Both the position numbers and the translations under genes were made by a program. The notes under the pieces were generated by a model, which made no database searches, was not told the DNA's origin, and worked only from the letters and a program-made list of their open reading frames with translations. Below are positions 4,906 through 38,209 of a stretch of DNA of 64,000 nucleotides, piece after piece. Source of the DNA: an uncultured Chloroflexia bacterium (GTDB lineage Bacteria > Chloroflexota > Anaerolineae > CG2-30-64-16); assembly GCA_963695715.1 (NCBI GenBank), contig CAVOHP010000003.1, positions 12,991-76,990 of the forward strand. Direction: 5' to 3'. Position 1 is the stretch's first letter; every line of letters begins with the position of its first letter.

Positions 4906-4937
4906 GGCAACTTAACCAGGAATTCTTCAGGGACGCA

Positions 4938-5976
4938 TCAGGCATCGGCCAGTTCGCGCCAGCCGCGCCGGGCAATCTCTCCTCTAACGTCCAGACGACA
5001 GCCGCTGTTCCCTGCATCGAGCAACAACGTCGCCAGCGCCACGGCGCCCAGACCATCCAGCCCCGTCACCAGCGGCTCACTGTTCCCACGCGCTGCTTCG
5101 ATGAACGACCGCAGCTCGGCTTCGAGCGGCTCGACCTTCGTGACGCGCAGCCGGGTGACGTTGCCCTCCTCGACCCCGCGGAAGAGCGCCATCGCATCCC
5201 ACCGGCTCGGCGCAATCCGATTCTCATAGAAGAACAGGTCCTGGGCGATATAGTCTACCACGAACATGCCCCGTTCGCCGGTTATGCGCAACTCACGCAC
5301 CTTCACGGGGCTTAGCCAGTTGATATCCAGCACCCCCAGCACGCCGTTATCGAAACGGAGCATCGCGGAGAGCAAGTCCTCGTGCGTCGCGTGTACGTTG
5401 CGCTCCACCTCCGCCGACACGTGCGCCACCGGGCGGCCGACCAGCCGGCGCATGATGTCCAGTTCGTGCGTCGCCAGGTCGAATACCACCCCGACGTCGT
5501 GGATGTAGGCGGGAAAGGGCGACAGTCGCCGTGCGTGCACCTGGAATATCTGCCCGATCTCGCCGCCCGCCAGTCGCGGTTGGAGCTCGATGATCGCCGG
5601 GTTGAACCGCTCGATGTGCCCCACGGTGAGCACGCGCCGCGCCGCGGCCGCGTGCGCGATCAATTCGCGTCCCTCCTCGTAGGTCGCCGCCATCGGCTTT
5701 TCGACCAGGACATGCGCCCCCGCATCGAGCGCCAGGCACGCAACTTCGAGATGCAGGGCGGTCGGCACGGCCACGGAGACCAGATCGGGTTGCGCCTCGT
5801 TCCAGCATCGTCTCTGCGTTCTCATATGCCGGGATGCGAAACTGGCGAGCTATGGCCTCACGTCGCCCTGCGTCCGTATCCGCAATCGCGACCAGTTCCA
5901 CGTCGGGCAGTTGCGAATAGACCCGAACGTGATGCCGCCCGATGGAACCGACGCCGATTACCGCGGCTTTCAACAT
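4938..5976 (-). CDS. Gfo/Idh/MocA oxidoreductase (WbpB/WlbA-like nucleotide-sugar 3-dehydrogenase); frameshift ~5815
   Basis: MLKAAVIGVGSIGRHH Rossmann start in one frame; VLVEKP, GHIERFNP, DLATHELD in the next. Confidence 0.85.
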
Positions 5977-5986
5977 CTTCACCTTC

Positions 5987-6565
5987 TTACGAGTGCGGCG
6001 AGAGAGTCCAATCGCACACGCGGCAACGCCAGAGGTCGCCATCCGCTTCGAGCGGCCTGCCGCAACGACAGGCCCACCCCACAAGTCGCGCCGGCGCGCC
6101 CAGCGCCAACCCGTGATCGGGAACCGAACGGGTGACGACCGCGCCCGCGCCGATCATGGCGAAGCGGCCGATTTCGATGCCGGGCAGCAGGATTGCACCG
6201 GCCCCGATCGAAGCTCCGGCATGCACCAGGATTTCCCCAACTTCCCAATCGTCGTCCGTCTTGAGACGACCGTCCGGCGTGACGGCGCGCGGATAGCGGT
6301 CGTTGCTCAGGCAAGCCTGCGGGCCGATGAAGACCCCATCCTCGATGCGGACGCCGTGATACACCAGGGCGTAATTCTGTATCTTGACATTGTCGCCAAT
6401 GCGGACGTTGAAGTCAACATAGACGCCCTTGCCCAGGATACAGTGTTGGCCGATGACGGCGCCTTCGCGCACCTGCGCCTGATGCCAGATGCGCGTCCCT
6501 GCGCCGATAGACGCCCCCGGCGAGACTTCGGCGGTCGGGTGAATCCGCACATCAGTCGCATTCAT
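5987..6565 (-). CDS. Hexapeptide-repeat N-acetyltransferase (WbpD/WlbB-like)
   Basis: IHPTAEV...IWHQAQVRE...KIQN...NDRYPRA; left-handed beta-helix repeats; C-terminal CxC...CxxC. Confidence 0.88.
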   Translation of the reverse strand: MNATDVRIHPTAEVSPGASIGAGTRIWHQAQVREGAVIGQHCILGKGVYVDFNVRIGDNVKIQNYALVYHGVRIEDGVFIGPQACLSNDRYPRAVTPDGRLKTDDDWEVGEILVHAGASIGAGAILLPGIEIGRFAMIGAGAVVTRSVPDHGLALGAPARLVGWACRCGRPLEADGDLWRCRVCDWTLSPHS

Positions 6566-8836
6566 GGCGTGAACTCCAGTTCGCGCACGTGAATCTTGGC
6601 GTCCGGCCCCGCCGTGAGGTGCAGCGCCTCGATCATCACTCGCTGCCACCTGCCCGGGGCCGCGGTCGAAACGCGACCTCGACGGTCGGGTCGGGCGGCA
6701 TATCGCGATACTCACGCGAATAGACCACCGGTTCCGTCGCGCCGGGCGCATAGGCGCTCACGTACAGGATGAAATCCATGCTGCCGAAGGTCGCCGCCAG
6801 CGTCTCAATCGGTCGCGGCCCGGCGAACGTGATATCGAAGACGATGGGATTCGCCTCCAGTCCGCGCACCAGCGTGAAGGGGTCGCCGTCGAACAGGTCG
6901 CTCACCTGCCCCGCCTCCAGCACCGAATGGGTGACTTGCGCCGGGCTGCCGTCAATCGCCGCCCGGTCGGTGACGGGTTGGCTGCGCTCGATGCGTTCCG
7001 CGGCCAGCAGTTCATCCAGGTTATCGGCGTAGGTCAGACGCGCAAAGTAGAACCCCGGCTTGCCGTCGGGATAGGGGACGATCCGATCCACGTCCACCGC
7101 TTTGAACTTCGGGCTGGCCAACGCCTCTTCATATTCCGCGGGCGTCATCACCAGCAGGGTATGGTCATCCAGCGTCCGGCGCGCGTCCATGTAGTGATCT
7201 ATGTTGAGCATCTGCACCCGGCGTTGCAGCACATTTGGGAGGAAGAAACGGATGAAGGTATCTGCGCCGTTGGCCCAGGTCGAGCTCACCATGATCTGCG
7301 TGTCGGGGTCCTCTGCGAGGTATTCCGGGATCGCCTCCTCGAAGAGCTGTCGCGCGCCGTACTGCATCCCATAGAGGCCATAGTCATTGAACCAGCGCGG
7401 CCCCTGCACCAGCGCATGGCGCAACAGCAACAGGCTCGCCAGCGCCATCACCGCGAACACGGCGACCGGCGCAGCGACCCGGATTCGCCCGCCGTGTGGC
7501 GGGGATCCGCTTCGCAAGGAACGCCAGGATCGTTTCCAACCCCAGGGTGCAGAACAGCGCGGCGGGCACGTTGAAGGCCATCACGCGGGTGATCGTCACA
7601 TCCACCAGCGCCGCCCCGGCCGGCGCAGCCAGCGCGCACAGCAACACCGCCCGATAGGTCGCCTGACGGACGCGGGCAAGGCTGACGCCCAACCCGACGA
7701 GGAAGAAGGGCAGCGCGAAGATGCCGAGATGCCCCAGCCCCCCGAAACCGATGCCGGGCGAGATCATGTTGATTGGGCAAGAACCAGTATTGCGGGCTGA
7801 GGCCGTATGCGTAGGTGCGAACAAACTGACGCAGCTTCTCGGTCAGCGAGATATCACGGAACCAGTAGGAATCAATCGCCCGGAGATGCTGAGGCAGCGA
7901 GTCGGGTTGCGTCAGGCGAAACCGCAGGATGGGAAGCGCCAGCACCGCAACCAGCCCCAGCCCGAGCAGCACGGTCTTCCAGTGACGCAGATGATAGGGC
8001 AGATCGCTGAGCAACAGCAAGACCGCGGTGGCGGCCATCACCATCTGCCCGTTGGAATAGGTGTAAAACGTGGCCGCGCCGAAGACCACCGCAGGATACA
8101 GATAGGCGGGCGCGCGCGTCCGGTAGAGCAGATAGAAGAGCAGGAAGAGGGCGTAGAACGACGCCATCATCACCGTCTCGAAGCCGGTGCGCGAATGCAG
8201 CAGCCAGTTGGGGGCCAGCGCCAGGAATAACACGGCCGTCCACCAGTAGCGGCAACGGAAGATCAGTCTGGCGGTGAGCGCCACGGCCGCAACCCCGGCC
8301 AACGTCACCAGCGCCGCAGTCGCGCGGGTGACGGCGATGCTCTTACCGAAGAGCGCGACCGGCAGCACATGAACGTAGACCGAGAGCAGCGGCGTCCAGC
8401 GCAGACCCGCGGCCTCGAAATAGAGGGGGAAGAGGCGACCGTGCATGTCGCGGAAGCCGTTCTGCAGCAGGTCAGACGCCAGCACGGCATGCGTGGCCTC
8501 ATCCGCGAAGAAGTAGATGGGGAAGCGCTCGAGGGCGTAGAGGCGGGTGAACGCATAGACCAGCAGCGCCAGCCCGAACAGGATCCACTCCAGCCGCGGT
8601 GCGCCCTGAGCATCGTCGGGCATCGCGGGCGGGTCATCCCCGCCCGGCGCGCCTTCTGGCATCACCTCGATGCGCATGCGGATCCGCGTATCATCCGGCA
8701 AGTCCAGGGGCGCATCGGGGCGAATCACCCCGCCCACATAGCGTCCGGTCGCGCCGGCGCCCTTCCTGCCGATGCGAACCGACAGGGCGGTAAAGCCCAT
8801 CCTGATCGAGTTGACGGGAGAGATCGTCATGCCCAA
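6562..8836 (-). CDS. GT-C (ArnT/PMT-like) glycosyltransferase with C-terminal beta-sandwich domain; several frameshifts
   Basis: FPIYFFADE after TM1, HSRTGFE, YTY, multiple TM helices; joined ORFs 7448-8836, 7384-7824, 6636-7517. Reconstructed stop at 6562 overlaps the next ATG. Confidence 0.8.
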
Positions 8837-8851
8837 AGCCTGACTACCCGA

Positions 8852-20414: not shown

Positions 20415-20452
20415 AAAACACGGCCCGAACACGCCTGCGCGTTCGGGCCGTG
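20415..20452 (-). terminator. Intrinsic terminator downstream of fba (possibly bidirectional with arfB)
   Basis: 12-bp inverted repeat CACGGCCCGAAC/GTTCGGGCCGTG followed by a T-run on the minus strand. Confidence 0.7.
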
Positions 20453-20501: not shown

Positions 20502-21458
20502 CTATTTGCCGGCAATTGCGGCGCGCACTTCGGACAGACGCCCGGCACACCCCAGTACCTCGCTCTTGTGAACGATGAAATCCGCATAGGCCGCCACGAA
20601 CTCTTTACCCGGCTTGCGGAAGTCAATCAACTCGGGCTGCGCCTGCATGCTCTCGCGGTGCACGCGATACCAGACGAGCCGCCCATCGGTGTCGATGTTC
20701 ACCTTCGTCACGCCCAGCGGCACGGCCCGGGCGAAATCCTCTTCTTGCACACCGCTGGCCGACGGATCGAGCTTGCCGCCCGCGGCATTCACGCGGATCA
20801 CTTCGTCCTGAGGCACCGACGAGGAGCCGTGCATCACGAGAGGGAAACCGGGCAACTCGGTCTGAATCTCGGCCAACCGGTCAATGCGGAGGCTTTGCTT
20901 GCCCTTGAACTTATATGCGCCGTGGCTGGTGCCGATGGCGACGGCCAGCGAATCGCAGCCGCTCTGCTCGACAAACGCTTTCGCCTCATCGGGATCGGTG
21001 AGGTGCGCGTTCTTCTCATCCACGTTCACGTCTTCTTCCACGCCGCCCAACTGGCCCATTTCCGCTTCGACGCTCAAGCCTTTGGCGTGGGCGCGCTCGA
21101 CGACACGGCGCGTCGTCGCCACGTTGCCCTCGAAAGGCTCATGCGACGCATCAATCATCACCGAGCTGAAGAAACCGGAATCAATGCAGTCGTAGCAGGT
21201 CGCCTCATCCCCATGATCGAGATGCACCGCGAAGATGGCTTCGGGGTACATCTGTTCGGCGGCCCGGATGATGGCTTCGATCATCGTCGCGCCCGCGTAC
21301 TGGCGCGCGCCCTTGGAGAGCTGAATGATGAGCGGCGCTTGCGCCCGGATGCTGCCCTGGAAGAGGCCCAACGCCTGTTCCATGTTGTTGATGTTGTACG
21401 CGCCGACGGCGTAGTTCCCGTAGGCCAGCTTGAAAAGATCAGCAGTTGTAACGATCAT
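20502..21458 (-). CDS. fba: Class II fructose-bisphosphate aldolase
   Basis: AVHLDHG, SVMIDAS, VEAEMG, AIGTSHGAYK, LVMHGSS, KVNIDTD. Confidence 0.95.
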   Translation of the reverse strand: MIVTTADLFKLAYGNYAVGAYNINNMEQALGLFQGSIRAQAPLIIQLSKGARQYAGATMIEAIIRAAEQMYPEAIFAVHLDHGDEATCYDCIDSGFFSSVMIDASHEPFEGNVATTRRVVERAHAKGLSVEAEMGQLGGVEEDVNVDEKNAHLTDPDEAKAFVEQSGCDSLAVAIGTSHGAYKFKGKQSLRIDRLAEIQTELPGFPLVMHGSSSVPQDEVIRVNAAGGKLDPSASGVQEEDFARAVPLGVTKVNIDTDGRLVWYRVHRESMQAQPELIDFRKPGKEFVAAYADFIVHKSEVLGCAGRLSEVRAAIAGK

Positions 21459-21570: not shown

Positions 21571-24500
21571 TCACGGGTTCTGTATCGCGCAGTAGCCGCC
21601 CGCATCATCGAGCATGTCGTCCAGCGGCGTCGCCCGCCCCAGGCGCAACGCCGCATCGCGTTCAGCGGCCGAAAGCGCCACGGTTGCCGATTGCAGGTTC
21701 GCATCGAGCGCCGCCTGCTCAGACTGCGAGCGCGGCGCGCCGATCACATCACGCAAAGCGGTCGCCGCACCGAACAACCGCAATGCGCGCCCCGGTTGGG
21801 CATCACGAGCCGCCAGTATGCCGATGTCTTCCATCAAGTAGGCCAGTTGCCAGGCGTCTCCCAACTCGCGGTTGATGGCAAGGCTCTCCGCATAGAGCGC
21901 CCGCGCCGCCAGGTGATCGCCCTGATCGCGCGCCACGTTGCCCAGATTGTTCAACGCGTTCGCCAGATAATGCCGGTCGCCCACCTCACGTTGCAAGATC
22001 ACCGCCTCTTCGAGCCGAACGCGGGCCTCTTCGTAATTCTCCCGGTGGCGCGCCAGGTTACCCAGGTTATTCAACGAAACGGCAATCGCCCGGCGGTCGT
22101 TCAACGCCCGGCGGATCGCCAGGCTTTCTTCATAGAGTCGCTGGGCCAGGTCGAAGTCACCCAGCGAACGCGCCACGATGCCCAGATTGTTCAGGAGGTT
22201 GGCGATTTGCGGGCGATCATCGAGCCGGCGACGCACCGCCAGACTCCGCTCGTATAGATCGCGCGAGCGCAGGATAATCGCCCTGCTGCGCCGCGATAGA
22301 GCCTTCGATGTGCAAGACCTGGCCGATCCCCGCGGCGTCGCCCACCGACTCGAATTCCCCGCGGGCGCGCTCCAGCCACTCCACGGCGGCATCATACGCG
22401 CCCTGCTTGCGATTCAGTTCACCCAGCGCAATTTCACAGCGCGCTTGCCCCAACCGGTCGCCAAGCTGCACCGAGAGATCCAGCGCCTGGTTGTAGGCCG
22501 TTTCGGTCTCCGTCCACTTCCCCATGATCTCCAGCACTTGCCCCAACCGTAACAGCGTCTCCACTCGTTCGGAATCCTGGAGCAAGGGCAACGCCCGGCG
22601 ATAGTAATCCACGGCCACCGCCCCGGCGTAGTTCTGCTGCGCAGACCTGCCGGCGCGCAGCAAATACTCGCGGCGCTTCGGATCGTTGCCCGTGCGGTCG
22701 AAGTGAAAGGCCAACAGATCGAGATGCTGATCGCGCTCCTCCGCGAAGAATTCTTCGAGATATTCGCCGATCTGATTGTGCAGTATGGCCCGCATCGCAT
22801 AGGTCAGGCTCTCGTATGCGACTTCCTGCGTGACGATGTGCTTGAACAGATAGGTCAGGTCGGGTTCGCCCTCCAACAATGTCAGCTCGAGCCGGCTCAA
22901 CACGCCCAGGTCTTCGGTGATGCCTTGCAATTCCCCGCATTGCGGGCACGCCCCCCAGATGACCGCCGCGCGAAACTGCCGCCCCACCACGCTGGCTACA
23001 CGCAAGGTCGTCCGTTGGCTGTCGGTAAGCTGATCAATACGGGCCAGGATCAACCGGTGCAGGCTGGCGGGCAGATCGAGTTGCGCCAGCGCCGCCGTAT
23101 CATGGGGATCAATGCCGCGGTCTTGCAGGTAGTTCAGCAACTCCGCGATATAGAAGGGGTTCCCCTCGGCCCGCTCGGTGACCCTCCGCACCAGATCAGC
23201 GGGCACAGCGAAGCGCGAGCCGAAAAACTGCTCCAGCTTGAGCCCGATGAGCTCTTCGGCCTGCGCGGGGGTGAAACCGGTCAGGCGAATCTCGTGGAAA
23301 TTCGGCAGGCGACTGACGCGCAGCCCTCCCGCTTCGCCCGCGCCCTCCGCGGCGGCCGCAAAGCGATGCAGCTCCGGGGGACGGTAAGCGGTCACCACGA
23401 GGATCGGGAGACGTGCGGAAAGCCGTCCCGCGATCTCGAGCAGGTCATGCGATAGCGGGTCAATCCAGTGACATTCGTCGAGCACCAACATGATCGGCGC
23501 TTCGCGGGCGCGGGCGCGCAGGCAGTCGGCCAGCAGAGCCTCCAGCGAAGTCTTGCGGAGCTTGGCGTCGAAGGTCTCCGTCAACTCGTTGTCGGGGAGC
23601 GGGAGATTGAGGACGGCGCCGAGCAGCGGCACGCGGGGCACGAGCCGTTCATCAATGGCCGCAAGCTGCGCTTCGAGATGTTGCATCACGCGTTCCGGGC
23701 CGACCGGCGCGTCGCCCACACTCAGCAGTTGATCTATCCCGAAAAAGCCGCGCCAGATCGTCTGCCACACCAGATAACTGGTGTTCGTGCCATAGGATTC
23801 GGCCTGTCCCCACAGCAACGTCATGCCGCGTCTCGCGCCCCAACCGCATCGCCTCAGACACCAGGCGCGACTTGCCCATGCCGGCCTCACCCGTCACGCC
23901 GATGATCTGCCCCTCAGACTCGAGCGCCAGGGCCAGCCGATCTTCGATCTGTTTGAGCTCGATATCTCGCCCAACCATCGGCAACCGGGCGGCCGTCTCC
24001 GGCGCATCCGCGCCGCGCGCCCGCGGCCCAATGAGCGCACGCACCGCCACGGTCGCTTGCTTGCCCTTGACGGAAATATCGGGCAGCGTCTGCCAATCGA
24101 ACTCCTGGAGCGTCGAATCAACCAGTTTCTGCGGGGCCAACACCTGGCCCGGTTCGGCGGCCTGCATCAAGCGGGCGGCCAGGTTGACGCTATCGCCCAG
24201 CACATCATACGTGCGGCGCGTCCGACCGCCATACGCGCCCGTCCGCATCACGCCCTGGGCGACGCCGAGTTTCACCCCCGTCACAAGACCCTCGCCGGCG
24301 CGCCGCAACTCCTCTGCAGCGGACACCGCCCGAATGACGTCATCCTCATGCGCCTGCGGCGCGCCGAACGCAGCGTAGATATAGCTGCCCTTGTCGCCCA
24401 TCGCAAGCTGAATCAGATTCCCCTCGTAGCGACCCAGGATTCCCTGCACGCGGCGCACAAAAGCGTCCAACCGCGCGGCGGCGTCCGGGTCATGGTCGTA

Positions 24501-25304
24501 ATCAATGCCCCCGAATTGCAGGAAGAGCGCGACCGCCGGGCGCAATTCCGCCAGGAAATCGCCCTGCCCGCTCCGCAAGCGCTCGTAGACCGGGGGCAAC
24601 AGGAAAGGGCGCACCGTCTGGTCATCCAGATTGCCCGCAGCAGCCGCATTCCAGGGCGCGGGCCACACGGGCGCAAGGAGGCGGCCGGCGACGCCAAACC
24701 GCTCACCCTCGGCGCTCGTCCGCCATTCGCGGATCTGAACCTGCGAGGCCAGATGCTCCGCGGTGATCGGATCGAGCAGGGTTTCGCCGCGCCGGGCCTC
24801 GTGCTCGGCGGACGCCAACCGATCCAGGATCGAGCCGGCGAGCACATCGCGCACCTGCACCTGCGGGTCGCCGATGAGAAAACGCCGGGCGCTGCCCGTC
24901 GCCACGGCGACCTTCATCCCCAGCGAGACCACGCCGCCCGATGGGATCGTGACCGCCGAAAAACGCTCCATCACCCGATGCATATCGAGCGCGCAAGCCG
25001 TTGCGCGCAGTCCATCATCGCCGTCGAGCCAACACGTGATCGCGTCGCCCGCAAACCCGATCACGCTGCCGCCGTATCGGTCGAGCTCGCAGATCAGCGC
25101 GTCATACACGTTGCTCAGATGGATCGTCAGCTCTTCGGCGCCCCGCTGTGGCCCCAGATCGCGCGCGAGCGCCTCCGTCAACGCGGTGAAACCCGAGATG
25201 TCGGCGAAGAGCGCTGCGCCATCGGCGCGATCAGGGAGCGACAGGCCCTTTGCCAGGGCCTGTCGGCGATCCATGGGGATGTAGAGGGAAAGCGTCTCGT
25301 GCAC
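21571..25304 (-). CDS. Tandem class III adenylate/guanylate cyclase + STAND-type NTPase + TPR repeats; frameshifts ~23830 and ~22270
   Basis: LFADISGFT, FAGDAI, GDKG, VLGDSVNLAARL; Walker A GEAGMGKS; Walker B LVLDECHW; GNPFY; LNNLG TPR repeats. Confidence 0.9.
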
Positions 25305-25326
25305 GGGCGGCCCCCGGCCTGAGTGG

Positions 25327-25707
25327 TCAGGCCTGCGGCTGAAGGAACCCGCGTAAGCGTTCCGCCATCACGTGCATGACTTCGAGAGAGAAGAAGGGAG
25401 TTTGCTGCACCAGGAAGGTGAATCGCCTGCGGTCAACCTGAGCCACGCGGCAGTCGGTGTTGGCGATGGCCGAGCCGCTGCGCGGCCGATCATCAATCAG
25501 CGCCATCTCGCCGAAAATCTCGCCGGCGCGCAAGGTGTTGATGTGCCGACCCTGCGCGTAGATGTCTACTTCGCCATCGAGTAGCACGTACATGCAGTTG
25601 CCTTCATCTCCCTGACGGAAGATGGTCTCACCGGCCTTGAAAATCTCGATGTTCCTCTCGTTCCGAAACAATTCCAAAGTGCTGTGCATTGTGGGCGTCT
25701 CCGTCAT
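25327..25707 (-). CDS. Stand-alone cyclic-nucleotide-binding domain protein (no HTH)
   Basis: IFRQGDEGNCMYVLLDG...FGEMALIDDRPRSGSA phosphate-binding cassette; 126 aa. Confidence 0.92.
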   Translation of the reverse strand: MTETPTMHSTLELFRNERNIEIFKAGETIFRQGDEGNCMYVLLDGEVDIYAQGRHINTLRAGEIFGEMALIDDRPRSGSAIANTDCRVAQVDRRRFTFLVQQTPFFSLEVMHVMAERLRGFLQPQA

Positions 25708-25726
25708 CTGCGCTATGGGTTACGGG

Positions 25727-28700
25727 TCAATCGGGAATCGTCGAGTCATAGATCGGGCCGCCGTCAATTGCATCCAACGACACGCCCTGATCGTGCGTCA
25801 CGCCGACGCGGACTTCACCGCTGCATGAAGCGCCTGCGGTATCCGTCGCCGTGAAATAGATGTGATAGACGCGACCGTCGCCCTTGCCGGAGCGCTCCGA
25901 ACGAACCTGCGCTATCGCAGTTCCAACGCCCTGCCCATCGGGGCTGAGGGCGCCTCGCCCGACCGGCTCATCCTGACGGATGCCGGTGATTGTCATTGTG
26001 ACAGGATCGCCGTCCGGGTCTGTGATGCCCATGACAGAGATCGCATGAAATTCCTTATCCGGGGGCCACAGATAGCCGGGAACCGCATAGGCCGCATCGC
26101 AGTTCGGGGCGGCATTCTCGGTGATCGTGAGGGAGCCGGTCGTCATCGAAGGTTCGTAACGCTCGTCGGTCAACACCAGGGTGGCCGACGGCAAGGGAAC
26201 CACGCCGCTGAAGTAAGCGGTCACGGTATAGTCGCCGGGAGGCAGCGGCGCGCCCGGCAATGAAGCCTCGCCGACATAGTCGGTGATTTCGGCCGCCGCG
26301 TAGCTGCCGCCCGCGCCGTTGATCACGAAGAAGATGGTCTTTTCCCCCATGCGGCGGCCGGCCCCATCCGTCAACGTCGCCGTGACGAGCGAATCGCCGC
26401 CGGACAGATCGAGGGTCAACACCGTGGGTTGCCGTTTGTATGTCGAACGGCGTAGTCGCCGACGACGCGATATATTGCGCGGTTCCCGCAAACGAGGCCC
26501 GCAGCACGTTCGGCCCCGGAATGCCCAGCAGCGAGAGCGTCGCCGTGGCGCGCCCGTTAGCATCGGTGAACCCCAGCCGGCTCTGCGGGCCGAGGCGGAA
26601 CGTCACCGGCAGCCCCGGCCAACGGCGCACCGCCGGCCGTCAGCACGGCGCTCGCCGTGATTTGAGAGCCATAAAGTCCGGTCGAGGCGGGCGCCTCCAC
26701 CGTTATGGTCGTCGGCTCGGTCGGTTGATCGACGCGCCCGGGCACGTAATAGGCGCCCATATTCGCGTCCAGCGTCACCAGTCCGACGCCGTTCACCGCC
26801 TGGACGATGAAGCGCACCGCATCCGCAGGCGTCGCGCCGAGTTCCAGAACGCCATTCCAAAGCGATGAATCGGCGGCGCTCTGCGCCAGATCCAGCGATT
26901 GCCACGTTCCGGCAAACGGCCCTTCGCTCGCCGTGTAGGTCACCCAGACGCCCTGGATGCCTGCTGCGGGGTTGCCCGCCGCGCGCACCTCGATCTGCGC
27001 CTGTGACCCGCTCACGTCCGAAGTCACGGCCACGATGGCCGGCGCGCCCGCCAACGCAGGCTGACTGCCGCCGCCGTAAACCGCGGTATTGCTGCTGTAG
27101 AACAGCCGCATATCCACACGATCATAGCGCCGCAGCGTCCCGGTCTGCGAGCCGGGCGAAGACGATTTGAATTGAGCCGGCGTCAGCATCAAGCGGGTTT
27201 CGCCGGCCGGGTTGACCAGCGCGTCGAAGTAATTCGGGTTCGCCAGGCGCACCGGATAGAAGATATCAATCGGGAAGGGCGCATGCACCCCGCGCACTTC
27301 GGTCGTCGCCGCATTCACCAGCGGCAAGATGTCCTCCAGATCGGCATACGCGCCGCCCCGGAAGCCGACGCCGCGCAACACGGTGTTCGGGACACTGACG
27401 TTGTAGATTTCCAGCGGCAAGACCGGCTCCGTGGGGCCGCCGGTGACGCCATCTGAGCCGCTGAGGTAGGTCGCGGCGATCAGCCCGCCGTCCTGGACGT
27501 TCGTCAGTTGCACGGTCTGTTGCGTCAGCGTCGGCGCCAGCGAGACGTCACTGTAAGCCAGGCCCAACGTTGCGCCAGGATTCGACGCATAGCCGTTGAG
27601 GCCGCCAATGATCGGCGCATCACCGTCTACCGGCAGCCGCTCGCCGGGCAGGTTGATGCTGAGCATCGGCAGGCCGAAGAGGGTCGCTTCGAGCAGCGCC
27701 TTCTCGTCAATGCCGCGCAATTGCGAAGCGTTTGCCAGATAGTTCTGCTTCGCAGCCGTCAGCGCCTTGCCCACCGCGACCGGGCCGGAGCCGGTGCGCA
27801 GCTCGCGGCTGAACTGATAGTACAACTCCTCGCTATACCGCAAGAAGTCCGTGTCGCCGTATTGATAACCCGTCCCGGCAATCAGGGTCGCCCCCTTGCG
27901 GGCGAAGGCCTGCGCCCAATCCGGCTCCTGCGTGACGCCGGAGACGCCGTGCGCGTTGACGATGTTATACCCCGAATGACACCCTGCGCTGAAGATCAGC
28001 GCATTACGCAAATCCACCGGCGAGGCCATCAGGTCGGAGGTGCGCAACCGCGTCGAGTAGTCGGCGGCCAGCGCGCTGGAGGCCGAGAAGTGACCGGCCA
28101 GGAAGACCAGGTCATTGCGTTGACCCAACAGCGCCGCGCTCAAGTCCTGGGCGGTCCAGGCCGCGGGATCCAGCGGTGAGAGGTCGCGCGGCGTGATCAG
28201 CGTATCCGCCGCAAAACCGGTCGCCGCCTCGAACTCGGTCTGCACGGCCCGCGCCGCGTCTTCGAGAAAGTCATATCCCGTGACCAGCGTGCGCTGCGGA
28301 GTCGGGGCGACGCCGTCGGGTGTGGCGAGATATGCCTCAAGCATCCCGGTCGCTTCGCCCGCCGTCTCTACCAGGCGTCCCACGGCAAGCCCCGGCACAG
28401 GGAACGCATCATCCTTGACGGCGATCTCCGCCGATGCGCCATAGTCATCCTGGCTCAACACGTAGTTCTGGCGCAGGCTCGCCTGTGACGCCGTGCTGTC
28501 CAGCACCGGCGGGACATAGTTCACCTCGCCCGCCAGGAGCGCCTGATCGGGATGGCGGAAGAAGGGGATCACATCGTCGCCGCCGACGATCACCACGTAT
28601 TCCAGCGGGTTGACGCCGCGATACACGTCCACGATCTCGCGCACGGCCCCGGCGACCTGGTTCTTGGCATAGGGGCACGCCGGATAGAGATCGGCCTGTG

Positions 28701-31683
28701 CGTTGGCTGCGGCGACGCGCGCGTCGCCGCTCACATCCACCACTACACCCCGCACTTCGGGGCGGGCGATGAATTCAGCGAGACGCGCCTGGAGCGCAGC
28801 CTGCTCCGCGCCGCTCCCTTCGAGCCGCTGGGGATCCATCAGCACGATCGTGCGATAGCCGCCCGCGACAGGGGTCGTGGACGAAGGCACAGCGACCGGT
28901 GCAACGTCCCGGCAGACGCCGGTCAACAGGGCGACGCCAAGCGTGAACGGCGTAACGGGATTGAACGCCCCGCTCCGCCCACGCACCCGCACATAGTAAT
29001 CTCCCGTGTTAAGGTGCGTGTTCAGCGAGACCCCTTCACCCGCCGTGCCACCGAACGCCGATACGGCGATCAGGCTGCGCATCTGGGCGCTGGAGAAAGC
29101 ATCCGGGCTGAAGGCGTCGGGCGAGAACGCGTCCGGGCTGAACGCATCCGGCGAGAACGCGTCGGGGCTGAACGCGTCCGGCGAGAACGCGTCCGGGCTG
29201 AACGCATCCGGCGAGAACGCATCCGGGCTGAACGCATCCGGTGAGAACGCGTCCGGGCTGAACGCATCCGGTGAGAACGCATCCGGGCTGAACGCATCCG
29301 GTGAGAATGCGTCCGGGCTGAACGCATCCGGCGAGAACGCGTCCGGGCTGAACGCATCCGGCGAGAACGCATCGGGCGCGAATTCGGCGCCCAGTTGCAC
29401 CAGGTCGGCCTGCGACGCGACATCATCGAACGCCGCCGCGATATCGCGATACACCGTAAGGTCATAATTGGCGGGCAGATCCGTCAGCGTGACGACCAGC
29501 CGGCTCTCCGGCTGCACCGCAAAACGATACCAGCGCGACTGTCCCTGTTGATCGAGATATTGCTGATAGGTCGCCGAGAGCGGGTCGCCGCCCAGGCTCA
29601 GATCGAGCGCCGCCGGCCACGAGTCATTCGCCGGGCCGATCCGGGCGCAGTTCGAGAATTCGGACGTATCCCCGCCAGGCCCCGTAGCCGTCGCAGTGAT
29701 GAACCCGACCGCGGGCGCGCCGGCCAGCGCCGGTGTGAAGATCGCATCGCCGGTCGCGTCTGTCGTGACCAGTATCTGATCCAGGAAGGTCTGCCCTTCG
29801 CCCGCGCCGCTCGGATCGCAGGTTGCGCCGGCAAAGAACTGAATCTTGACGATGCTATCGGCGTGTCCGTTATAGCGCCCCGCCACCGTGACCGCCCCGG
29901 CCTCAGGAGCCGCGCGGATCAGATACGGCGCATTATTGAGGGTATTGGCCCCTTCATCGGGGTCGCCGGTGTCGTTCGGCGTGGAGCCGTCGCCCGCCAG
30001 GTCAATGCCCAGGCCGCCGTTGTCGTAGATTGCGTTCGACAGAACGCTGTTGGCGACGCCCGCCAACACTCGCACACCATCGCCGCCGTTGCCGAAAATC
30101 GTGTTGGACTCGATCAAGGCGCCGTCGGAGCCGTGCACGACCACGCCGTGACCACCGAAACCGGTGATCACGAGGCCCCGAATGGTGGAACCCGCCCCGA
30201 CATCAACGGCGTCCTCCATCACAGGCGCCGCGCCGCCCTCGATGACCAGCCCATCCACGCCGGCTCCCGCATTCGCGCCGTTCAGCACGAGGACGCCCCC
30301 CGGCTGGGTAAAGCCGTCAATCACCACCGGATCAGTCATGGCAGGCAAGGCGGAACCGACCTGAATCGTCGTTGGCCCGCCTGAGGAGTCCACCAGGTTG
30401 AAGTTGATCGCGTCGGGCGCGGCATCGTTGGGTCGGTTGTTGGCCGCGCGGATCGCCTCGCGGAACGAGCAATGCGCGTTGCTGCAAACCCCATCATCCA
30501 CGTCATCATTCACGCCGACGGTCGCGATCACCCGATAAATCGGGCCGGTCTGCGCGCCGTCCTGCCCTTCGAACGCGCCCATGTCACAGCGCGGCCCTGC
30601 CGGTCGAGGGAACCCGCGCTGATCCACGGCGGCGCAGGCCAACCCGCCGCTTCCGGGGACGAGGGGATTCGCCGCATCGAGCGCCGGGCTGCTCGCCGCC
30701 AACGCATGGGTGTCCGTAGGTCCGCCGTTGTCCTGTAGCGGCCCCAGCGCAGGGTCCTGACCCGTGATGTTGCCCGCCGTACGCCCGCCGACCGTGCAAC
30801 CGGCGCTATCCGCAATTAAGTTATACCCCTGTGAGGCCAACACACCGCTGCAATCGGGGGAGCGCGTCGCGGGGCTCGCATCGAGATTCCGTCCGATGAT
30901 GCTGTTGCCCACGCCAAACGTGCCCTTGATGATCGCAACGCCGCCGCCATCGCCTGCGCCGTCCTGATCTGCATCGGCGGTGTTGGCGGAAACCGTCACA
31001 TTATTCAGCTTGGCGGACCCGGCCCCGTTCGCGATGCCGCCGCCGGAGCCGCCGGCGAAGTTGCCGCTCACGGTGACGTTGGTCAACACAGCGACGCCGC
31101 GATTGAATAACCCACCGCCCGCCATCATCGCGCGATTGCCCGTCAGCGTGACGCCCTCGAGCGTCAACATGGCGCGATTCGAAACGCCGCCGCCGTCCAG
31201 GGCCGTATTCCCCCCGTGGATCGTCACATCTTTGATCGTGACGTTGCCTGTGATCGTCTCCAGGATGCGGTCATTGAAGCCCGACCCGGCGCCGATGCTC
31301 ACCCGTCCCTGACCAAGCAGGCTGACGCTCTCCCGGATATCCAGGTCGCCTGTCGCGCTCGCATCTTCTGCAGCGACATGCACGCGCGTAAGAAGGTATG
31401 CGCCCGCCGGCAAGAGGATCGTGTCCTCGCCCGATCCGGCAGGGCACTCACCGGCCAGGCCGCCGGAAGGCATATTCGTATTCGCAGCAATGACGGCCTC
31501 GCGCAGCGAGCAGCGCCCGTCATCGGCGAGGGTATCGTCAACGGTGTTCACGGTGATCGTCGTTGCGGCGACCACTGCTTGCGGCGCATAAGCCATCGGC
31601 GCGAGGAGGGAGATGATGAGGAGGATGGTCGCCCAATGAGGTCGGATGCGCGGGATACGACGGGTTGATACAGCTTGTCTCAT
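25727..31683 (-). CDS. Giant secreted protein (~1980 aa): signal peptide, 2 CSLREA motifs, beta-helix and choice-of-anchor-Q-like region, PPC-like domain containing (PDAFS)19, peptidase C25/caspase-fold domain, Ig-like repeats, C-terminal LWPP domain; frameshifts ~26620 and ~26435
   Basis: CSLREA and CSFREA; LQDNGGPTDTHAL...DQRG...CDMGAFE; YVVIVGGDDVIPF, LAVGRL, LAGHF, SAGCHSG; LWPPDKEFH...ERSGKGDGRVYHI. Confidence 0.85.
29092..29376 (-). repeat. Coding tandem repeat, 19 x 15 bp (PDAFS) with a 30-bp higher-order period
   Basis: 285 bp counted directly; the Ser codon alternates AGC / TCN in successive units. Confidence 0.97.
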
Positions 31684-31821
31684 GTCTTCTCTCCGACCAA
31701 CAGGATGCCTGTTCAAAACCCACAAGGGGCGAAACTGTAAATATCCGAATAGACTTTCGGTCAACAATACAACCGAGGACGGGCCATTAATCGATGGACC
31801 GCCTTCGGTGTGGCAAAGATG

Positions 31822-31850
31822 ATTGTACTCTATTTGATACTGTTTCGCAA
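31822..31850 (-). promoter_or_regulatory. Sigma70-type promoter of the secreted protein/cNMP/cyclase operon
   Basis: TTGCGA-N17-TACAAT in an AT-rich intergenic region, ~130-nt leader. Confidence 0.55.
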
Positions 31851-31871
31851 GACGAGCGTAGATTGATTGCG

Positions 31872-32615
31872 TCAGACCGGCGGCCAGGGATAGGCCCGGC
31901 GGTCTTCCGGTGGATCGGGGAAACATCCGCCGTCGGTCAGCGATGCCAGGCGCGAACGAAAAGCCCGCAATTCATTGGTGGAAAGCAGACTACGCAATTC
32001 CCGCACCAGCGGGTGCGCGGGATCAGCCAGATTTTCTTCGAGACGCCACAGATCGCGCATGAGGTCGGGGGGAATCTCCTCGCCTGCGAAGTCCCAGATC
32101 ACGGTGCGAAGCTTTGGCTCGACGTTGAAGCAGAGGCCCTGATCTATGGCGACTACGCGCTCGTCGCCGACGCGCAAGCAGTGACCGCCCTTCCGGTCGG
32201 CGTTATTCGTAATGGCATCGAACAGGGCCAGCGCTTGCAACGCGCGCCGGAAACCCGGCTCTTCGTGGAACGTGAAAAAGTGATCGTCCTGCTCCGCCTC
32301 GACGAACAATTGCACCGAGCCGACGCCGTGCGGCCCATCGCGCAAAACGGTTGGCGGCACAAGATTCCAACCCAGTTCCTTGCTGACGAGGTAAGCAGCC
32401 GTCTCGCGTTTCGCCAGCGTGCCCCGCGGGAAATCCCAGAGGGGCCGCTCGCCGCGCACCGGTTTATAGACCACCGGCGCGCTGATCTCCTCATCCGCAA
32501 CCTGCCCCAGGAACGTGTAGTTGGAACTCCACGGCAACAATCCCTTCAGGGTCATCTCGCCATCGCGCAGAAGTTCCAGCAAGGCTTCGGTTTGTGGGAG
32601 GTCTGGCAGTGTCAT
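31872..32615 (-). CDS. SCO1664 family protein (PI3/4-kinase-like fold)
   Basis: SSNYTFL, VYKPVRGERPLWDFP, REtAAY, NNADRKGGH, AIDQG. Confidence 0.92.
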   Translation of the reverse strand: MTLPDLPQTEALLELLRDGEMTLKGLLPWSSNYTFLGQVADEEISAPVVYKPVRGERPLWDFPRGTLAKRETAAYLVSKELGWNLVPPTVLRDGPHGVGSVQLFVEAEQDDHFFTFHEEPGFRRALQALALFDAITNNADRKGGHCLRVGDERVVAIDQGLCFNVEPKLRTVIWDFAGEEIPPDLMRDLWRLEENLADPAHPLVRELRSLLSTNELRAFRSRLASLTDGGCFPDPPEDRRAYPWPPV

Positions 32616-32637
32616 TCTTCACCCGTGGCGAGCGCGC

Positions 32638-33213: not shown

Positions 33214-33220
33214 ACTGCTC

Positions 33221-33913: not shown

Positions 33914-33914
33914 G

Positions 33915-35270: not shown

Positions 35271-35327
35271 CGCGCAGCCTTTCAGCCCGGCTCATACAGA
35301 CCAGCGGGTTCAAATCCCGCCTCGCAA
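35271..35327 (+). pseudogene. Degenerate tRNA-fMet-like sequence with intact T-arm
   Basis: GCAGCCT..AGC, CGGCTCATA, perfect T-arm GCGGG-TTCAAAT-CCCGC, CGCAA; acceptor and anticodon stems cannot form. Confidence 0.45.
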
Positions 35328-35377
35328 GTCATCGCAGGATAGCGCATGCAGCAGTGTTGCGGGAACAAGGAGAACTC

Positions 35378-37336
35378 ATACTGAACACCCCACAACAAAT
35401 CTCCAGAGCCCTCGACAGGGTCCTGCCGTTTGTTCAAAAGCCCGCCCGCTACACCGGCGGCGAGTACAACAGCATCGTCAAAGAGTGGGACGACATCCCC
35501 TATCGGCGTCGCGCTCGTCTTCCCCGATATTTACGATCTCGGCATGTCGAACCTGGGGCTTGCTATCCTCTATGACACGGTGAACAGCCGGCCCGACATG
35601 CTGGCCGAGCGCGCCTATGTGCCCTGGGTAGACATGATCGCCGCGATGCGCGGCGCGGGCATCCCGCTCTACTGCACTGGAGTCGCGCCGCCCGCTCGAC
35701 CAGTTCGACGTGATCGGCGTTTCCCTGCCCTACGAGCAACTCTACACCAACGTCCTGACCATCCTCGATCTTGCCGGCATCCCGCTGCGCGCGGCGGACC
35801 GGACGGACGAGCCGCTGATCCTCGCCGGAGGTTCGGCCTGCCTGAACCCCGAGCCGATGCACGCCTTCTTCGATGCCTTCTTCATCGGTGAGGGCGAAGA
35901 GGCGATCACCGAGATCGTGCGCACCTGGACCGACGCGCGACGCGCGGGCCTCGACCGGACGGCCGGCCTGAAACGCCTGGCGCAGATCGAAGGCGTCTAC
36001 ATCCCGTCATTCTATGAAGCAAGCTATCTACCCGGACGGCATACTGGCCGCGACCGACGGTACGACCGGAGTACGCGGGCGTCGCCCCGCCGGTCGTCAC
36101 CAAACGCATCGTGCCCACGCTGCCGCCGCCGCCCACCCGCTTCATCGTCCCGTTCATCGACATCGTTCACAATCGCGCTGCGCTCGAAATTCAACGCGGC
36201 TGCACGCGCGGTTGCCGCTTCTGCCAGGCGGGCATGGTTTATCGCCCCGTCCGTGAGCGCCCCATCGAAGAAGTGCTGGCCGCGGTGGATGAGATCGTCC
36301 GGCAGACGGGATTTGAAGAAATCGGCTTCCTCTCGCTCAGTTCATCGGACTACAGCGCCGTAGGTGAGCTGGTGAAGGAAGTGGGCGCGCGACACGGCGA
36401 AAAGAAGCTCTCCATCGGGCTGCCGAGCCTCCGCATCGAAACCTTCAGCGTTGATCTGATGGACAGCCTGGAGAACGGGCCGGCGACGGTCGGGGTTCAC
36501 CTTTGCGCCCGAAGCGGCGACCGACCGGCTGCGCGACGTGATCAACAAGCCGATTGCCACCGAGGCCCTGCTCGATGTCGCGCGTGAGGTATACGTCGCG
36601 GCTGGACGACCATCAAGCTCTACTTCATGATCGGGCATCCCACGCAGACGCTTGAAGACGTGGAGGCGATTGCCGATCTGGTGCATGAGGTGCGCAAGAT
36701 CGGCTTCAACACGCTGGGCCGAAAGTCGAGCGTGCGGGTTGGCGTCAGCACGTTGGTGCCGAAGCCGCACACGCCGTTCCAATGGCTGGCCGTCGCCGAT
36801 GAGGCGACGCTATACGATCAGATTCACCTGCTCGAACGCCGGCTGCGCGGGCCGGGGATCGAGTTCAGTTGGAACAGCCCGCGCGAGACGATCCTTGAAG
36901 CCGCCTTGAGCCGCGGCGACCGCCGGCTTGCCGATGTGATTCAGCACGCATGGGAGGCGGGCGCGGGTTTTGACGGCTGGGGAGATCAGTTCAAAGAGTC
37001 CGCCTGGCGTAACGCGTTCGCCCGGCATGGCCTCGAACCGGACTGGTACGCACGCGGCGCGAACGTGCCACCGATGAGGCGCTGCCGTGGGATCACATTG
37101 ACGTCGCCGTGACGAAGCGTTTCATGGTGCGGGAATATGAGGCCGCGCTGGCCGCCGAATCTCTGGCCGACTGCCGGCGCTATCCCGAAGATAGCGGGCG
37201 CGAGCAGGGCAAATGTTACGCGTGCGGCATCCTGACCCAGTTTCGCGACGAACGGCGTGAGACCGACGCGGACGCCTGGGGCTGCCCGCCCCTGAAACCG
37301 CGACGCGCGCCGGTCACGCTTCTCGCGGAGACCTGA
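35378..37336 (+). CDS. TIGR03960-type B12-binding radical SAM protein; multiple frameshifts, start codon uncertain
   Basis: VQKPARYTGGE.N, FPDIYDLGMSNLG, NPEP, IGEGEE, EIQRGCTRGCRFCQAG (CxxxCxxC), FAPE, KLYFMIG.P, PKPHTPFQW. Confidence 0.9.
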
Positions 37337-37396
37337 AAGCCTGGTCGGGATCGGGTCGAACCCGCCCGCAGGCGTTCTCTGTGATCGGAGTTCTAC

Positions 37397-38209
37397 GTGG
37401 AGAGCAATGGCGTCATGACAGTGAATACGGCGTTTGGTGATCGGGTCGCCGTCATTACGGGCGGCGCAACGGGCATCGGGCGGGCGACGGCGCTCGCGCT
37501 CGCCCGAAATGGCGCCGATATCGCGCTTGCAGGTCGGCGCGCTGCGGAGCTGGAAGCGACCGCCGAAGCCGTCCGCGCGCTGGGCCGCCGCGCCGTCGCC
37601 ATCCCCACCGACGTGACCGACCGCCAACAGGTCGAGCATCTGATCGGCGAGACTCTGGCGACGCTCGGCAGGCTCGATATCGTCATTGCCAACGCCGGGC
37701 AGTACGTGCGCTCGCCCATCGAGCCGGGATGCAGCGATGCGTTCGAACAATCCATGGCCGTGAATTTCTACGGCGCGCTCTATCTGATCCTCGCCGCCCT
37801 GCCGCACCTGAAGGCGCAGCGAGACGGCCATATCGTGATCGTTTCCTCCGTGGACGGCAAGAAGGGGCTGCCGACGGATGGGCCTTACGTCGCCGCGAAA
37901 TTCGCACAGGCGGGGCTGGGCGATGTGTTGCGGCAAGAGGTCCGCCCCTACGGGGTGGGCGTCTCCGTGATCTTCCCCGGACGCGTGGATACGCCCATGA
38001 TCGAAACGCTGGAAGTTCCGAAGATTTCGGCCAAGGCTTCACCCGAGATCGTGGCCCAGGCCATCGTCAAGGCAATCCGGCATCGCACGCCGGAGGTCGT
38101 CTTGCCCATGAGTTCCCGGCTGTTCTTGTGGGCCGATCGCCTATCCCCTCATCTCAGTGACTGGATCATCCGGTTTTTCCGCCTTGAAGGTTGGGAGAAA
38201 GCATCATGA
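37397..38209 (+). CDS. Short-chain dehydrogenase/reductase
   Basis: ITGGATGIG, IANAG, VSS, YVAAK (YxxxK). Confidence 0.93.
   Translation: MESNGVMTVNTAFGDRVAVITGGATGIGRATALALARNGADIALAGRRAAELEATAEAVRALGRRAVAIPTDVTDRQQVEHLIGETLATLGRLDIVIANAGQYVRSPIEPGCSDAFEQSMAVNFYGALYLILAALPHLKAQRDGHIVIVSSVDGKKGLPTDGPYVAAKFAQAGLGDVLRQEVRPYGVGVSVIFPGRVDTPMIETLEVPKISAKASPEIVAQAIVKAIRHRTPEVVLPMSSRLFLWADRLSPHLSDWIIRFFRLEGWEKAS

Follow-up and report, generated by a model that had tools for sequence, protein, structure and literature searches.

In a stretch of 64,000 nucleotides from an uncultured Chloroflexia bacterium (assembly GCA_963695715.1, contig CAVOHP010000003.1; in the following the window), the minus strand encodes side by side a giant secreted protein with a predicted gingipain-fold cysteine peptidase module, a small cyclic nucleoside monophosphate (cNMP)-binding protein and a cyclase-STAND-TPR protein that resembles soluble adenylyl cyclase (sAC). 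Comparison with related loci points to a conserved core of two genes, encoding the giant protein and the cyclase, across Anaerolineae-type Chloroflexota. The components are known families, namely the clan CD peptidase fold, the sAC-type cyclase, the STAND-TPR switch and the CRP-type cNMP domain; new are the conserved pairing, a loop of short peptide repeats in the giant protein and the co-variation of this loop with the TPRs of the cyclase. The pairing suggests an undescribed signalling module and links a cytosolic sAC-like enzyme with an extracellular protease-like giant and a species-variable loop of identical short peptides. Tentatively, and in our estimate just short of probable, the two proteins are functionally coupled, the terminal TPRs of the cytosolic STAND cyclase being adapted to the repeat peptide of its partner.

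A module-alignment scan with one genome per species provided 53 related loci, nearly all from metagenome-assembled genomes (MAGs) of Anaerolineae-type Chloroflexota. An orthologous cyclase is located beside the module in 38 of these loci: its catalytic part is present in 35, in 25 of them within 800 nucleotides downstream on the same strand, while in three further loci (L032, L044, L061) the cyclase is cut by a contig end or a frameshift, with the gene of L044 also downstream on the same strand. Another three loci (L062-L064) combine a distant module (45-48% identity, with PDAYS-type arrays) with another cyclase-STAND-TPR paralogue and a Crp-type regulator, and seven of the remaining 12 loci end at most 275 nucleotides past the open reading frame (ORF) of the giant protein. 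Equally, in a class sample of 401 evenly drawn genomes, with the module accepted at a minimum of 42% identity and the cyclase at E <=1e-90 within 12 kb on the same contig, the module was matched 34 times in 31 genomes, with the cyclase present in 28 of the 34 cases (27 of 33 without one unpublished genome). The six misses occur in assemblies of 20 to about 1060 contigs, with the matches on other or short contigs. The 28 cyclases are found downstream on the same strand (21), upstream (4) or in convergent orientation (3), and divergent modules of about 35% identity adjoin the cyclase in G381, G259, G282, G364, G114 and G152.

An earlier note on this DNA had proposed a three-gene operon with synteny in relatives and a gene-neighbourhood search as its checks. 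The trio is indeed syntenic in G001, a genome of the same genus, and in G031, which belongs to another family. In the neighbourhood search the pair of giant protein and cyclase recurs, but the stand-alone cNMP gene lies between the two only in G001 and G031. As the loci derive nearly all from one class, shared ancestry inflates these counts, and some genomes carry one partner alone; the gene order could in this way have been inherited without functional coupling, with an ordinary cAMP circuit that happens to adjoin a surface protein. We consider this decidedly improbable. The flanks are not conserved, as clustering of all ORFs found no neighbour family besides the cyclase in more than 23 of the 53 loci, which argues that the pairing is not part of one frozen block. 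Moreover, proximity is kept while orientation varies (downstream, upstream, convergent, divergent), the pairing persists to a module identity of about 35%, and in L062-L064 a distant module is paired with a different cyclase-STAND-TPR paralogue. This paralogue is single-matching at 27% identity on the opposite strand (e.g., at L064:4185-8438) and provides an analogous pairing with a different cyclase. As a separate observation, module contigs also occur in MAGs labelled Verrucomicrobiales (L045), Burkholderiales (L059) and Dormiibacterota (L068), with the cyclase present as well in L045 and L059, which reflects either mis-binned contigs or joint transfer of the two genes.

The gene for the giant protein (25727..31683, minus strand) encodes about 1985 amino acids when two +1 insertion errors, treated further below, are discounted; its domains were assigned with NCBIfam and Pfam on intact orthologues. 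A signal peptide, MRQAVSTRRIPRIRPHWATILLIISLLAPMAYA (31585..31683), includes the most hydrophobic stretch of the whole protein (hydropathy window of 19 residues, start at residues 20-22) and precedes a pair of CSLREA N-terminal motifs, a choice-of-anchor Q domain and right-handed beta-helix repeats (29638..31566; TIGR04214 E=1e-14, NF041518 E=3e-20, PF13229 E=3e-10). The next segment (28915..29637) is a PPC-like beta-sandwich split by the repeat loop; the PF04151 match is weak, at E=3e-4 below cut-off, with a predicted local distance difference test (pLDDT) of 85-89 on both sides of the loop in the AlphaFold2 (AF2) model. A 723-residue gingipain-fold (clan CD) module with subsequent beta-sandwich domains (26745..28914), identified with AF2 and Foldseek, leads to Ig-like Big_3_5/Big_1 domains and a C-terminal domain (25727..26744), which hold both insertion errors and in which the last approximately 137 residues have no family match. 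The giant protein with its predicted cysteine-peptidase module is thus expected to be Sec-exported.

The 723-residue module was modelled with a pLDDT of 87.9 and a predicted TM score of 0.87 from an alignment of 29 rows. Top matches of the model in a Foldseek search of the PDB are the gingipains RgpB (4ief, 1cvr; E about 2e-11) and Kgp (4rbm, 6i9a), with E values ranging from 2e-11 to 2e-8; 4ief, 1cvr and 4rbm were matched with probability 1.00, E 2e-11 to 8e-9 and a target-normalised TM score of 0.50-0.59, and PorU, separase, caspases and CHAT proteases follow at lower ranks. A putative catalytic dyad is formed by His275 (AGHFS; codon 28090-28092), at least 90% conserved among the 29 sequences, and Cys312 (SAGCHSG; codon 27979-27981), which is invariant; as in clan CD enzymes, they come after the strands E269-273 and E306-310 of the model. 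By sequence, the module has no PDB match at E <=10 and no match to a Pfam peptidase model. The caspase/gingipain fold of a secreted protein, which the earlier note had read from the DNA alone, is hence supported at fold level by the signal peptide and the model, whereas membership in family C25 is unsupported by sequence. The family of the module is large, with 3073 representative clusters (50% identity) at E <=1e-3 and 1401 at E <=1e-30, and all of its best 150 representatives are proteins of 491-5322 amino acids.

With the gingipains RgpB and Kgp and with PorU of Porphyromonas gingivalis (MEROPS C25, clan CD), the giant protein shares its secreted multidomain character, the succession of N-terminal subdomain, caspase-like subdomain and Ig-like beta-sandwich, and the order of His and Cys after beta-strands. 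It differs from them by a sequence identity of only 13-14% and by the embedding of the module in a protein of about 2000 residues that also carries CSLREA/beta-helix domains, a PPC domain and a loop of peptide repeats; a type IX secretion C-terminal domain was not detected in the giant protein.

Directly before the protease module, a loop of approximately 95 residues (29092..29377, minus strand) is built from PDAFS repeated 19 times without deviation, for which 11 distinct 15-nucleotide DNA units are used. The flanks of the array form one beta-sandwich in the AF2 model and the array itself, with a pLDDT of 34-42, is predicted to be unstructured and exposed; it is therefore probably a loop leaving and re-entering one domain and not an inter-domain linker. 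A role as inter-domain spacer is accordingly disfavoured, with both ends returning to the same beta-sandwich, and a beta-solenoid as in pentapeptide-repeat proteins is unsupported by the low pLDDT across the array. Pentapeptide-repeat proteins follow an A-[DN]-[LF] register, which the unit order D-A-F does not fit. The array occupies the same place among the 53 related loci, 14 of which possess exactly 19 exact PDAFS units. Each array is encoded by 11-17 distinct 15-mers and uses Ser codons of both the AGY and the TCN type; the DNA units are thus synonymously scrambled while the peptide is perfect, so that the units are kept identical as peptide and not as DNA. This pattern of codon use shows strong peptide-level selection on the repeat.

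On the other hand, the unit itself varies among species, with homogeneous arrays of PDAFA, PEAFS, PSAFS, PDSFA, PDVYS, PDAYS, PDMYS, PAAFS or PDIFS. Exact pentapeptide arrays of at least five copies occur in 108 of the best 150 family representatives, with about 54 unit types of the pattern P-x-x-[FYW]-x, and 20 of the 42 representatives without an array have the module near the N-terminus and may be truncated. Hexapeptide arrays occur at the same place in the relatives L087, L091, L092, L089, L095, L097, L098, L100 and L101, with units such as NPDAFS (16 copies), NPDAYT, NPDVYS and NPYDIS and, beside divergent modules, DIAQLS, IGQMSN and IGSLNG.

The partner gene (21571..25304, minus strand; about 1243 amino acids, two further +1 insertion errors discounted) encodes tandem class III cyclase homology domains (24015..25232; C1 at about 24771-25232 and C2 at about 24015-24614), a STAND/AAA_16 P-loop NTPase with a helical arm (22634..23978; Walker A GEAGMGKS, Walker B LVLDECHW) and a TPR sensor domain of the TPR_12/TPR_10 type (21571..22633), whose last approximately 200 residues diverge with the repeat unit. 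In the intact G001 orthologue, AAA_16 (PF13191) was matched with 73.5 bits (E=4e-20; cut-off 32.6) and TPR_12 with 146 bits. The best PDB sequence match is human sAC (ADCY10; 4clf/4oya) over both cyclase domains (E=9e-24), with residues 25-178 aligned to sAC 37-190 (C1) and residues 231-390 to sAC 265-427 (C2). In sAC, Lys95 and Arg176 are involved in bicarbonate binding, Asp47 and Asp99 in metal binding and Thr405 in adenine contact, as described in PMC12250328. The metal-binding Asp pair of C1 and the transition-state Asn/Arg of C2 are kept in 35 of 35 orthologues; the equivalents of Lys95 and Arg176 are replaced in all of these, the former by Ser, Gly, Ala, Val, His or Tyr and the latter by Ala, Val, Gly, Ser or Ile. 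Bicarbonate sensing in the mammalian manner is consequently disfavoured, and an active cyclase that is not bicarbonate-gated in this way is expected from the residue pattern. Asn412 and Arg416 of sAC are presumably the transition-state residues, and Lys334 we take to be adenine-specifying. The Lys334/Thr405 pair is not kept among the 35 orthologues, with Gln at the former position in 32 and Gly at the latter in 33, while the G000/G001 lineage, as in the present cyclase, has Asp instead; this leaves the product nucleotide unsettled. The sAC-like architecture named in the earlier note thus stands for the order of tandem cyclase, STAND NTPase and TPRs and for the alignment of both domains with ADCY10, but does not extend to the bicarbonate site and the adenine-specifying Lys.

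Bacterial sAC-like cyclases have been reported from Chloroflexus (Kobayashi et al., as cited in PMC11006738). The cyclase described here shares with these enzymes and with ADCY10 two class III domains in one chain followed by a P-loop NTPase and a TPR-type region, and with sAC the catalytic residues given above, and differs from sAC in the replaced bicarbonate-site and adenine-specifying positions. We know of no sAC that has been described as encoded beside a giant secreted protein, nor, to our knowledge, has a function been established for the C-terminal NTPase/TPR half of sAC even in mammals. Cyclase-ATPase-TPR(-LuxR) proteins of the mycobacterial Rv0386 type equally fuse a class III cyclase to an AAA/STAND ATPase and helical repeats, with Gln/Asn instead of Lys/Asp at the substrate-specifying positions of Rv0386, but they have a single cyclase domain and a C-terminal helix-turn-helix (HTH), in contrast to the tandem sAC-type domains and lack of an HTH here.

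No signal peptide and no convincing membrane segment were detected in the cyclase. Its TPR region is closest in sequence to the TPRs of LGN/Pins and kinesin light chain, which bind short linear peptides. Sub-threshold NCBIfam matches to 'TOMM system kinase/cyclase fusion protein' and to a RiPP-associated TPR protein are only a hint that STAND-TPR cyclases may keep company with peptide systems.

It is in these TPRs that the cyclase varies with the loop of its partner. In the close relatives L050 (PDAFA units) and L056 (PEAFS units), the identity of the cyclases is 91% for residues 1-1030 but falls to 55% for residues 1040-1242, with no frameshift in the alignment and with the TPR scaffold residues kept; the corresponding giant proteins are 80-97% identical along their length and 59-62% across the array. 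An initial test of the co-variation in 27 sequences, with seven pairs of the same unit and six of different units, gave a weak result. The test was repeated after the addition of 29 loci from the class sample, with 39 labelled sequences, 12 of 51 being left out for want of a recognised unit, and with pairs of nearest neighbours, each sequence used once, chosen greedily and not on a tree. The identity of the C-terminal TPRs minus that of the rest of the protein averaged +0.003 in nine same-unit pairs versus -0.122 in ten different-unit pairs (one-sided Mann-Whitney p=0.0008, the test being not fully corrected for phylogeny). When all pairs were grouped into bins of equal divergence, different-unit pairs had lower C-terminal TPR identity relative to the rest in every bin. 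At the level of these alignments, the C-terminal TPRs of the cyclase are shown to diverge faster where the repeat unit differs.

Gene anatomy, predicted fold, conservation of catalytic residues, pairing, selection on the repeat and faster TPR divergence form the observed basis on which a coupled module is proposed. The C-terminal TPRs of the cyclase would recognise the repeat peptide of the giant protein that the same cell produces, encountered either as loop fragments that are cut out and taken up or as the precursor before export. Binding of the peptide would flip the STAND switch, whereupon the tandem cyclase would make a cyclic nucleotide to be read by local cNMP-binding proteins, here possibly by the stand-alone CRP-type protein encoded between the two genes. 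If the TPRs indeed read the repeat peptide, a concrete testable ligand would be at hand for the TPR region of a sAC-type STAND protein, and filamentous Chloroflexota, which occur in large numbers in activated sludge and sediments, would have a new route to perceive themselves, their neighbours or the state of their own secretion. If they do not, the repeat loop would still be a widespread unexplained feature of the module family with its 3073 representative clusters.

A number of observations weigh against this coupling of loop and TPRs. With respect to the pairing, L040, L051, L053, L060 and L067 are without cyclase despite at least 7.7 kb of downstream sequence, 13 of 40 cyclases (at least 54% identity), some of which are on short contigs, have no module within 12 kb at E <=1e-60, and G210, G344 and G370 carry the cyclase with no module even at E <=1e-5. 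With respect to the giant protein, L039 possesses the pair without an array, and the Pfam family Peptidase_C25 (PF01364) was not matched at E <=1 on the orthologues P0001 and P0002 or at E <=0.01 on the window ORF. The Ser-Asp repeats of staphylococcal surface proteins, which are glycosylated spacers, are likewise perfect short repeats with scrambled codons. As for the co-variation, recombination might account for the contrast between L050 and L056, sequences paired by the same unit are more closely related on average, and the different-unit pair L080 (PDMFA)/L079 (PDSFA) exhibits no TPR acceleration (+0.019). Finally, the giant protein is exported while the cyclase has no signal peptide, so that contact needs uptake of fragments or recognition before export, and ORF clustering of the 53 loci revealed no peptide importer conserved in the neighbourhood.

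The information might instead flow in the reverse direction, with the cyclase sensing an unrelated cytoplasmic cue and controlling expression, export or activity of the giant protein via CRP-type or other cNMP receptors, and with the loop, unrelated to the TPRs, acting as an element of display, modification or autoinhibition. Such a direction accords with the conserved adjacency of a cyclase that is mostly downstream on the same strand, with Crp-type regulators adjoining the module in G031 and L062-L064 and with the diverse cNMP readers nearby, and PMT-like genes about 17 kb away on the contig would allow Ser glycosylation of the loop. It leaves unexplained, however, why the C-terminal TPRs diverge faster together with a differing unit and why every unit of the loop is identical at the peptide level, and no transcription factor is located beside the pair in most loci; as the main rival we regard it as rather unlikely.

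A more far-reaching variant of the coupled module, which we consider unlikely, views the giant protein as a secreted poly-precursor equipped with its own processing enzyme and releasing peptides as a species- or strain-specific 'pherotype' signal for quorum or kin sensing via the cyclase. The gingipain-fold module, in cis or between molecules, would cut the loop into about 19 identical penta- or hexapeptides, which, once imported, would bind to the TPRs of the cyclase, and the peptide concentration would be translated into a cyclic-nucleotide pulse and passed to local cNMP receptors. By analogy only, this recalls the RRNPP regulators of Firmicutes (Rap/NprR/PlcR/PrgX; PMC4873490), in which a TPR receptor in the cytosol is specific for a peptide of 5-7 residues that has been secreted and processed, and in which receptor and peptide diversify in the manner of 'pherotypes'. 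In contrast to these systems, 19 tandem copies of the peptide reside here in a protein of 2000 residues with its own predicted protease module, and the receptor would signal through a STAND switch and a cyclic nucleotide in place of DNA binding or phosphatase activity. If true, Chloroflexota would possess peptide-based quorum or kin sensing that relies on a precursor with tandem copies and on a receptor of the cyclase type.

The gene between the two partners in the window (25327..25707, minus strand) encodes a protein of 126 amino acids that resembles the N-terminal domain of CRP. PF00027 was matched with 85.4 bits (E=2.6e-24; cut-off 27.5), the phosphate-binding cassette FGEMALIDDRPRSGSA is conserved in three orthologues, and the CRP model was matched at positions 8-130 of 214 only (51 bits versus a cut-off of 266). 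With neither an HTH nor an output or second domain found by Pfam and NCBIfam, it is predicted to be a CRP-type cNMP-binding domain on its own, just as had been noted before. A three-chain complex prediction of this protein with the catalytic core and the TPR region of the cyclase scored 0.00, which speaks neither for nor against an interaction.

Iterated profile searches of all ORFs identified cNMP domains in 13 of the 53 related loci, with seven architectures among the genes near the cyclase: besides the stand-alone form, the neighbours include cNMP-HAMP, HEAT-cNMP, cNMP-HD, HD-cNMP-SpoIIE (PP2C), Crp-type regulators and, in three loci, SulP-STAS-cNMP. The cNMP reader is therefore an accessory and not part of the core of the module, and this variety argues for the cyclase as an active writer, the output of which would be read locally by interchangeable receptors. 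Two further observations concern this cyclase type and its readers. The SulP-STAS-cNMP genes beside the pair of giant protein and cyclase, in which a transporter of the SulP family is fused to STAS and a cNMP-binding domain (L047:6419-8788, L059:1175-3658, L069:7286-9541) may encode a cyclic-nucleotide-gated anion transporter next to a sAC-like cyclase. In G009, a 1079-residue protein (L016:745-4497) that joins a response-regulator-like N-terminus to tandem cyclase domains of the sAC-like kind (47-69% identity) adjoins a gene for a cNMP-binding protein of 154 residues without a giant protein, another writer-reader pair on the same cyclase type.

A class III cyclase encoded with a cNMP-binding protein also brings to mind Pycsar, and an anti-phage or conflict system of the Pycsar/Avs kind could be envisaged, with a STAND sensor, a cyclase, a cNMP relay and a caspase-like executioner. 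The STAND-TPR architecture, the non-canonical substrate-specifying residues and PADLOC matches to PycTIR for the cNMP protein (E=5e-18) and to PycC for the cyclase (E=2e-10) are in line with it. These matches, however, cover generic cNMP and cyclase domains only, and the giant protein matches no PADLOC model; with a signal peptide and extracellular-type domains (beta-helix, PPC, Ig-like), its protease cannot act inside the cell. Nor does the cNMP protein possess an effector domain, such as the TIR or transmembrane effector of Pycsar; the cyclase is a STAND-TPR protein of 1243 residues in place of the compact Pycsar enzyme, and the module is conserved class-wide and not patchy like defence islands. 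Defence is thus a very improbable function.

In agreement with the earlier statement that no characterised system with this combination was known, a literature search found no paper describing it: none joins Chloroflexi, gingipain and adenylate cyclase and none contains the doubled repeat peptide, and the papers found for CSLREA concern unrelated Acinetobacter proteins.

In the assembly both large genes are interrupted, which had been absent from the earlier account. The frame of the giant gene changes near 26617 and 26434, such that an ORF of 1789 amino acids (26557..31926) is followed by two further frames to a stop at 25727, and that of the cyclase gene near 23831 and 22272, resulting in three overlapping ORFs (23652..25304, 22217..23890, 21571..22395) that together, as judged by Pfam, constitute one cyclase-AAA_16-TPR protein. 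Four frame breaks within 9.7 kb might be taken for real frameshifts in a decaying operon with two pseudogenes. Each of them, though, is one extra base (at about 26616, 26434, 23831 and 22274) compared with G001, which is collinear with the window over about 54 kb at approximately 84% nucleotide identity and in which the genes for the giant protein (an ORF of 1999 amino acids), the cNMP protein and the cyclase (1243 amino acids) are all uninterrupted. Contigs of four other public runs from three studies, mostly 90-99% alike, are equally one base shorter at 22270, 23829/23832, 26434 and 26617. Furthermore, the 53.8 kb aligned to G001 hold 42 frame-breaking indel clusters in long ORFs, of which 34 are net +1 and three net +2 and by which 13 long ORFs are affected; the rate of +1 errors is about one per 1.3 kb of coding sequence versus the congener, and their density elsewhere is no lower than in the operon.

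As the +1 errors are spread over the contig and the extra bases are absent from G001 and the four runs, the breaks most plausibly represent assembly artefacts, with the genes intact in the organism and no decay of the operon. Neither stop-rich degeneration nor deletions were seen, and decay is hardly credible as an explanation. The source genome, 2.99 Mb in 38 contigs, has a completeness score of only 63%, which may stem from marker genes broken by the same errors and would fit with artefacts. The G001 or G031 orthologues were used wherever a full-length protein was needed. Many other genes of the window are split by the same errors (e.g., 1440..4035, 4938..7517, 35276..37413), among them the gene for a radical SAM protein of 711 amino acids (Radical_SAM_N2 and Radical_SAM; minus strand, about 35276-37413; orthologue L013:4352-6487) with eight frame-breaking errors.

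ORF listing and translation indicate minus-strand coding throughout 21571-31926. The three genes are co-oriented and about 20 bp apart, as first described, with intergenic gaps of 19 and 22 nucleotides. Translation of the giant gene very probably begins with the ATG at 31683 (MRQAV...), since a hydrophobic signal segment follows and the longer ORF would overlap the upstream gene. In the gap of 188 nucleotides upstream, a sigma-70-like -35/-10 site, TTGCGA-17-TACAAT (31822..31850, minus strand), was recognised as a consensus match only. Promoter-like sites are not enriched in the region (two found versus 2.4 expected from shuffles), and with matches at chance frequency the single promoter assumed in the earlier note is not shown. 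No RNA data for the locus are listed among 23 runs, the share of words in any run being 0.20 at most. A terminator scan detected no terminator-like site between the cyclase gene and the downstream class II aldolase gene (20502..21458), and a strong terminator-like site is present 3' of the latter (20452..20419).

About 17 kb downstream of the cyclase (window positions about 1-9000 and upstream on the contig; orthologues L017:595-19640), membrane proteins of 842-1568 amino acids with PMT_2/PMT and DUF2298 domains are encoded. Such protein O-mannosyltransferase-like proteins could glycosylate secreted proteins; they are not conserved beside the module in other loci. The same holds for the upstream minus-strand neighbours (31872-34955), which comprise a protein of 247 amino acids without assignment, a DUF3090 protein, a protein of the histidine phosphatase family and a protein of 346 amino acids without assignment, and which are collinear in G001.

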